64,000 bases of DNA from the NCBI GenBank assembly GCA_951406725.2, contig OX597829.1:57102001-57166000 (forward strand). The letters are read 5' to 3'. Below the pieces are notes generated by a model. That model ran no database searches, was not told the DNA's origin, and was given only the letters and a program-made list of their open reading frames with translations. How positions within the stretch are numbered: the stretch's first letter is position 1; every line of letters starts with the position of its first letter. This stretch comes from Octopus vulgaris. Lineage: Eukaryota. Of the stretch, positions 44,917-45,260 are shown piece by piece. The translations under genes and the position numbers were made by a program.

Positions 44917-45260
44917 AACAATTGCAGCGTGGAAGGTGTTTATAAGCCATTTAAGAAACACAGAAAAGCCGTTCGATTCACTTCAACATTTAAGTTTAAT
45001 TTGTCAAAATATTTTCGTCGCTTTAAGACCGCGATGACCTGTTCACTGACAAAAATCCGTGCTGCATCTTTGTCAGTGAACAGGTCATCGCGGTCTGAAA
45101 GCGACGAAAATATTTGGTCAAATTCAATTGAAATGTTGAAGTGAATCGAACGGCTTTTCTGTGTTTCTTAAATGGCTTATAAACACCTTCCATGCTGCAA
45201 TTGTTTTCGTTCCAGCACACGATATCAGATCAGGTCACTTGCTATGCAGGTACATCTCCG
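44917..45260 (+). mobile_element. Penelope-like foldback element inside (TA)n with G3-C8 variant hammerheads in both arms
   Basis: 137-bp arms 44917-45053 / 45069-45205 and unique tail to 45260. Minus strand 45001-45052 reads TTGTCA-GTGAACA-G-GTC(ATC)GC...GCGAC-GAAA-ATAT-TT-TGACAA. Confidence 0.8.

Follow-up and report, generated by a model that had tools for sequence, protein, structure and literature searches.

The pairing of positions 3 and 8 is a feature of the active hammerhead conformation. On the minus strand of the 64,000-nt stretch of Octopus vulgaris DNA analysed here (the window), an initial annotation had pointed out a hammerhead-like motif in which these two positions are swapped, G3 and C8 standing in place of C3 and G8, and had proposed that it is a functional variant. 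We asked what kind of element this motif belongs to, whether its relatives share the swap, and whether such a core is likely to cut.

A foldback insertion with two copies of the motif

The motif lies in a foldback insertion whose two arms are 94% complementary across 140 nt and are flanked by tracts of the (TA)n target microsatellite (44876..44917 on the left, 45261..45317 on the right). The short arm (44917..45069, minus strand) contains a minimal type I hammerhead at 45000..45053. Its sequence exists as annotated, with small corrections: stem I, given as 6 bp, has 7 bp (45053-45047 with 45006-45000). Along the minus strand, the core box G3-U-G-A-A-C8-A9 (45046-45040; G3 at 45046, C8 at 45041, A9 at 45040) is followed by an extra G (45039), stem II (45038-45017), the GAAA of G12-A15.1 (45016-45013), the palindrome AAUAUU (45013-45008) and U17 (45007), with the predicted cut site between 45007 and 45006. 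Nor is the core box the sole deviation, as had been thought, since an ATC insertion inside stem II (45033..45035, minus strand), which the family majority lacks, is also unusual, being found in only 6 arms at 5 loci genome-wide. The second copy (45069..45122, plus strand) has the same core, with G3 at 45076 and C8 at 45081, and the same ATC insertion; that both arms carry the motif is right for the core but not for stem I, which in the plus arm has mismatches at 45116 and 45118.

Beyond the motif, both arms run into the start of an open reading frame (ORF) which we assign below to a Penelope-like element (PLE). The short arm extends from the inferred capped transcript start at 45069 to the first reverse transcriptase (RT) start region, ∼34 nt into the ORF (44917..44950, minus strand; ATG at 44950-44948), where the TA tract cuts the ORF off. 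The long arm (45069..45262, plus strand) is its inverted copy and includes an extra "tail," ending ∼91 nt into the ORF (45172..45262, plus strand; ATG at 45172). Within the window, the ORF is thus limited to its first 11 codons in the short arm and its first 30 in the long one. Because these arm ends match the two 3′-end clusters of the family (see below), we read the locus as an inverted pair of 5′-truncated pseudo-LTR (pLTR) ends inside a TA tract.

The swapped core is the consensus of an abundant family

An exact 20-mer pattern matched the 2.8-Gb genome 6,348 times, with G3-C8 in 5,824 copies, G3 and a letter other than C8 in 349, and a letter other than G3 in 175. The reversed-pattern controls for this 20-mer gave no match genome-wide, and a generic motif finder, run on two 675-kb shuffles, returned no complete canonical-type hit (one with A9 and a paired 3-8), which together argue that the motif is not a chance occurrence. 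A downstream 19-mer located 10,962 arms in the genome; when arms were sampled without regard to core letters, G3-C8 made up 79 of the 83 readable cores. The motif was present at 11/11 long-ORF loci, which were chosen from the top of a list of 144 scored family hits, and all 16 motifs there had the identical G3-C8 core and stems. Contigs from four public runs, labelled with four organisms, had no alternative letter at 5% or more at position 3 or 8. Three expectations of the initial annotation are thereby borne out: the genomic copies have G3/C8 as their consensus, the swap is older than the foldback, and CUGANGA descriptors would overlook a core with G3 and C8.

Family copies can form the three-way junction of a hammerhead, with a 7-bp stem I, a 5-bp stem II closed by G10.1-C11.1, and the AAUAUU palindrome. 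They depart from the literal consensus of C3 and G8, yet a Watson-Crick 3-8 pair is possible, U4-G5-A6, A9 and G12-A13-A14 are retained, and the cleavage triplet UUU satisfies the NUH rule. We are nearly certain that the window motif is a hammerhead homologue. The motif is family-wide, and structural selection probably acts on it. A search of Rfam gave no hammerhead match at the locus, which is a weak test, as the window's two canonical minimal hammerheads also stay below the gathering score; the only candidates were miRNA-type hairpin matches, all below threshold, and we discarded them.

The pLTR end also occurs in short tandem arrays at L059:1841-3200 (∼175-bp units) and L136:553-1700 (∼210-bp units), whose direct repeats could be a source of cis dimers. 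One foldback insertion recurs with the same junction and flanks (L259, L263, L306, L307, L311, L312, L316, L093 and L120); it has been captured and spread within a larger repeat.

The parent is a Penelope-like retroelement

The initial annotation had missed the parent of the motif, a PLE, a class known for such minimal hammerheads. Upstream walking from the motif reached a frame with RT and GIY-YIG domains. At L071, a 1,025-aa frame contains YVDD, a CX3CxxC linker and a CCHH motif as well as a Pfam GIY-YIG match (PF01541, E=1.8e-5, above the cut-off), and at L158/L159 the motif region continues into the ORF start, with the ATG 56 nt past the predicted cut. Pieced together from these loci, the element has a single ORF with RT followed by a C-terminal GIY-YIG, as in EN+ PLEs; a stop-free full-length ORF of the G3-C8 family was found at none of the loci examined. 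At L073, two direct motifs 4,261 nt apart flank a broken ORF, the second marking the other pLTR. This tandem arrangement, the inverted pairs and the two clusters of 3′ ends, which imply an optional tail, are the hallmarks of PLE pLTRs. The CX2-5CxxC linker and CCHH motif of the L071 protein are those of the Neptune/Nematis type, a likeness of motifs rather than of an RT tree. On sequence grounds, we identify the window motif as a minimal type I hammerhead in the 5′ UTR/pLTR of a PLE with RT and GIY-YIG.

Two other assignments were considered and set aside. A non-LTR retrozyme would consist of noncoding tandem monomers with a canonical type I hammerhead; here, the unit belongs to a coding element, as a PLE pLTR that continues into the ORF. 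Dual coding had been suggested by a frame through the motif that resembled a GIY-YIG C terminus, but the real ORF stops ∼1 kb before the motif and begins again 56 nt past the cut.

Sister families covary at positions 3 and 8

Relatives were found by a search with the ORF N terminus, 40 of whose 151 hits were examined. In family B (55% protein identity to the G3-C8 family; 4,315 matches), the first 100 matches listed include 98 with C3-G8 and 87 with an A9C change, A9 being retained in older copies; the motif finder run on the long-ORF loci demanded A9 and hence misses this family. Family C counts 3,257 matches, and 93 among the first 100 listed carry U3-A8. In all three families, the motif precedes the ORF start by 56-101 nt, these starts being homologous (35-50% identity), and U4-G5-A6, the extra G, G10.1-C11.1, GAAA and mostly U17 are common to them. 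In a structural alignment parsed by script, the interfamily differences in the 5-bp stem II are all fully compensatory pairs. With G-C, C-G and U-A seen across three related families, the compensatory nature of the 3-8 pair, as initially proposed, holds up: judging from these sequences, the pair covaries in nature in the pattern expected of selection on it, though three families are few. The amplification of family B with A9C in turn suggests relaxed catalytic selection in the clade.

Within the G3-C8 family, in post hoc tests on 165 arms partly selected for core variants, common non-CpG variants fell on 5/9 loop II sites versus 2/42 stem/core sites (p ∼0.001), the two latter being one G.U-compatible change and position 8 itself; the difference between stem/core and flanking UTR sites (2/42 versus 8/57, p=0.18) was not significant.

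As to the sister elements themselves, family B (L080-L088, e.g., L082:2137, plus strand) is a young PLE with many intact 1,312-aa ORFs. Family C (L183, L187 and L217-L241) has an AAUU palindrome and a 3-bp stem I, and at several of its junctions an additional G stands 13 nt ahead of U3. A degraded hammerhead-like leader upstream of the ORF start at L193 may represent a fourth related family.

Variants at position 8 argue against strong catalysis

Of the 349 position 8 variants, the first 100 listed comprised 43 G, 41 T and 16 A; of the 175 position 3 variants, the first 100 listed comprised 61 A, 30 T and 9 C. Scaled from these counts, C8-to-G amounts to ∼150 copies versus ∼16 for G3-to-C, a ninefold difference, while transitions and G>T/C>A are roughly symmetric between the two positions. 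C8G was present in 5/96 arms, compared with 2 of 1,912 C sites in the background, but in only 1/83 cores of the sample not selected on core letters. As the excess occurs on several backgrounds, in one arm or both (L010, L125, L145, L148, L150, L151 and L168), templates with a broken 3-8 pair were probably copied. G3.G8 as an ancestral intermediate is not supported: most of the oldest-looking copies inspected have C8 (L166 has G8), and no C3-G8 copy was seen among the first 100 listed of the 175 non-G3 matches. It seems likely that intact family copies are able to cleave at all.

Genomic 5′ ends map to an inferred cap, not to the cut site

As an indirect genomic test of cleavage, we went through the first 30 Mb of contig C1 in order and examined 101 arms selected on sequence downstream of the cut; seven of them have one identical inversion junction and share flanks, that is, they are one captured unit, leaving ∼95 independent events. 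Only 2/101 arms started within 3 nt of the cut site, and 42/101 started at -24 to -17, with a peak 23 nt before G3. The 3′ ends of the same arms fell into two clusters.

Among 113 arms reaching the 5′ peak, 46 retain the element's upstream sequence and 67 do not. Directly before the peak, where the element has C or T, 46 of these 67 junctions show a G (16/28 in the unselected subset). Untemplated G's have been ascribed to cap copying in the consulted part of PMC3287187, and the extra G is likely a copied cap, although microhomology with the inverted arm may explain some cases. A CTAAC...CAG before the motif had the look of an intron acceptor; however, what the junction copies display is a single additional G and not a common exon further upstream, and we read the site as a capped start. 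With the 5′ ends at the inferred cap and not at the cut site, uncut RNA is the likely integration template. We infer a capped transcription start and uncut templates, as seen in vitro for the anole element.

Predicted folds of intact copies and of the window locus

For intact copies, the predicted minimum-energy monomer combines stems I and II with a wobble between G3 and U17 (-15.4 versus -14.1 kcal/mol without it), a pair predicted to lengthen stem I at a gain of 1.3 kcal/mol. The predicted active dimer, at -28.8 kcal/mol, falls short of the dimer minimum by ∼4-5 (3.9) kcal/mol; for the canonical motif at window position 61262 the difference is larger, at 6.7 kcal/mol. We count the wobble and the dimer's distance from its minimum against the reading favoured below.

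The window copy fares worse. In its minus arm, the ATC insertion is predicted to cost ∼6 kcal/mol, the preferred register pairing G12 and A13, and the plus arm is predicted to fold without stem I. In a transcript across both arms, the antisense arm comes first and the predicted product is a hairpin of -215.8 kcal/mol. Since the 140-bp foldback would bury both motifs, the ATC insertion disturbs stem II and stem I of the plus arm is broken, these models make it very probable that the window locus is unable to cleave, and the claim of a functional variant is not supported for this locus, itself one decayed copy among thousands.

Weak or conditional cutting and its alternatives

The reading we favour, and hold to be reasonably probable, is that the motif is a PLE 5′-UTR hammerhead with a family-wide G3-C8 core and weak or conditional cutting, for which a dimer or the element's protein is predicted to be needed, and that the foldback copy is likely inert. 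Transcription would start ∼23 nt before G3 and yield a capped RNA, on which the element's RT would start at two sites, ∼30 and ∼90 nt inside the ORF, copying the uncut RNA up to the cap or stopping earlier. Two such cDNAs, joined head to head within a (TA)n tract, would give rise to the window locus. The AAUAUU palindrome would let two hammerheads pair into a shared stem III, with cleavage after U17. This would either take off a capped leader of ∼60 nt or trim tandem transcripts, as a regulatory or processing side step outside integration.

The G3.G8 excess, the A9C change in 87 of the first 100 listed family B matches, and the missing cut-site peak of genomic 5′ ends would suit a former hammerhead whose fold is kept as a structural or protein-binding part of the PLE RNA leader, with G3-C8 preserving shape only, as would two reports in the portions consulted: PLE insertion in vitro was unaffected by hammerhead mutants (PMC11167929), and Naiad PLEs thrive without hammerheads (PMC8557442). 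We nevertheless consider such a loss rather unlikely, as all three families preserve U4-G5-A6, G12-A13-A14 and an NUH cleavage site alongside the covariation at 3-8, the 3-8 pair belongs to the active conformation, and engineered ribozymes with the same swap stay active in the accounts available from PMC11167929, PMC8495972 and PMC9901934. It is improbable that the conserved letters are instead a DNA-level internal promoter element downstream of the start, with the hammerhead likeness secondary: the core does sit at ∼+24 to +30 from the inferred start, where downstream promoter elements are located, and the internal promoter of Drosophila Penelope contains a DPE (PMC2377424, in part), but the inferred start of family C is only 13 nt before position 3, so that the spacing is not kept, and a DNA motif does not explain paired stems with compensatory changes. 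Least credible to us is an efficient ribozyme whose cleavage yields the transposition template as unit-length or circular RNA. Such a role has been proposed for PLE hammerheads (PMC4209133, in the part consulted), and both the direct copies flanking the ORF in L073 and the short arrays at L059 and L136 would fit it; however, starts at the inferred cap outnumber those at the cut site by 42 to 2 of 101, and copies usually include the whole core.

Returning to weak or conditional cutting, we tentatively raise the further possibility, itself doubtful, that selection in this PLE clade has favoured throttled hammerheads. G3-C8, U3-A8, and C3-G8 with A9C, each in thousands of copies in one of three sister families, might all slow cleavage and gate it by dimerization or protein, as a self-limiting switch that removes the capped leader and spares uncut RNA for integration. 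If true, the swap would have its first natural example in G3-C8, and the three families would amount to a natural experiment on the purpose of PLE hammerheads.

Relation to known hammerheads and elements

The PLE minimal hammerhead is already known; a natural, family-wide G3-C8 core appears new. We found no natural G3-C8 in the literature searched, whose scope did not include Lunse et al. 2017, reportedly the largest survey of PLE hammerhead variants, and priority is therefore uncertain. The portions consulted of PMC6765202, PMC6155905, PMC7229834, PMC2377424 and bioRxiv 10.64898/2026.07.22.740005 contain none either.

Minimal hammerheads of PLEs, the dimer model, their low activity and a U3-A8 variant were described by Cervera and de la Pena (2014; PMC4209133), and, as far as the sections consulted go, our family shares with those metazoan motifs the pLTR position, an extra nucleotide between 9 and 10.1, G10.1-C11.1, a palindromic stem III, frequent U17, inverted pairs and single truncated copies. 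The 56 representatives given there have C3-G8, U3-A8 (Schistosoma Cercyon) or, once, U3.G8, and none has G3-C8; the extra nucleotide is G in the G3-C8 family versus an H consensus. Natural U3-A8 variants were also reported by Perreault et al. (2011; PMC3088659), likewise an instance of natural 3-8 covariation, with U3-A8 the only variant named in the text available; set against it, the change from C3-G8 to G3-C8 takes two transversions.

The anole Poseidon element PAc (Frangieh et al. 2024; PMC11167929, consulted in part) resembles our family in its AT-rich targets, in uncut RNA as the main template and in two RT start sites inside the ORF that yield an optional tail. PAc is naturally C3-G8, whereas the swap is natural in the G3-C8 family; its ORF starts inside stem II rather than 56 nt after the cut site; and the G3-C8 family protein differs in having a Neptune/Nematis-type zinc-finger linker. 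When C3G/G8C was engineered into PAc, protein-assisted cleavage was partly restored (PMC11167929), and engineered G3-C8 was partly active elsewhere (PMC8495972 and PMC9901934, both in excerpt). As engineered G3-C8 is less active with C17 than with G17 (PMC3884650, in the excerpt available), U17 in the G3-C8 family may avoid a G3-C17 trap. Neptune/Nematis PLEs, in the part consulted of Craig et al. (2021; PMC8557442), share the C-terminal GIY-YIG with CCHH, the CX2-5CxxC linker, (TA)n targeting and inverted pLTR insertions; the G3-C8 family differs in its non-canonical hammerhead core, and its clade is not fixed by a tree.

A natural G3-C8 core would complete the covariation evidence for the 3-8 pair. 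It also means that CUGANGA/UUGANAA descriptors overlook families with many copies, among them some PLEs that had been listed as lacking a hammerhead. With a different core in each at the same homologous position, the three related families offer a direct test of whether PLE hammerheads must cleave.

Other features of the window

Two canonical minimal hammerheads of other repeat families lie on the plus strand of the window. One (52327-52359, core at 52331) has a CUGACGA box, sits beside a TA tract and has relatives in L009 and L075; the other (61257-61303, core at 61262) has a CUGAUGA box and belongs to a further family with a relative in L130. Open frames at 34983-35627 (plus strand) and 11757-12248 (minus strand) resemble LINE reverse-transcriptase fragments. 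A SINE-like repeat is present in two 82%-identical copies, at 46135-46252 and 46372-46490, ∼237 nt apart.
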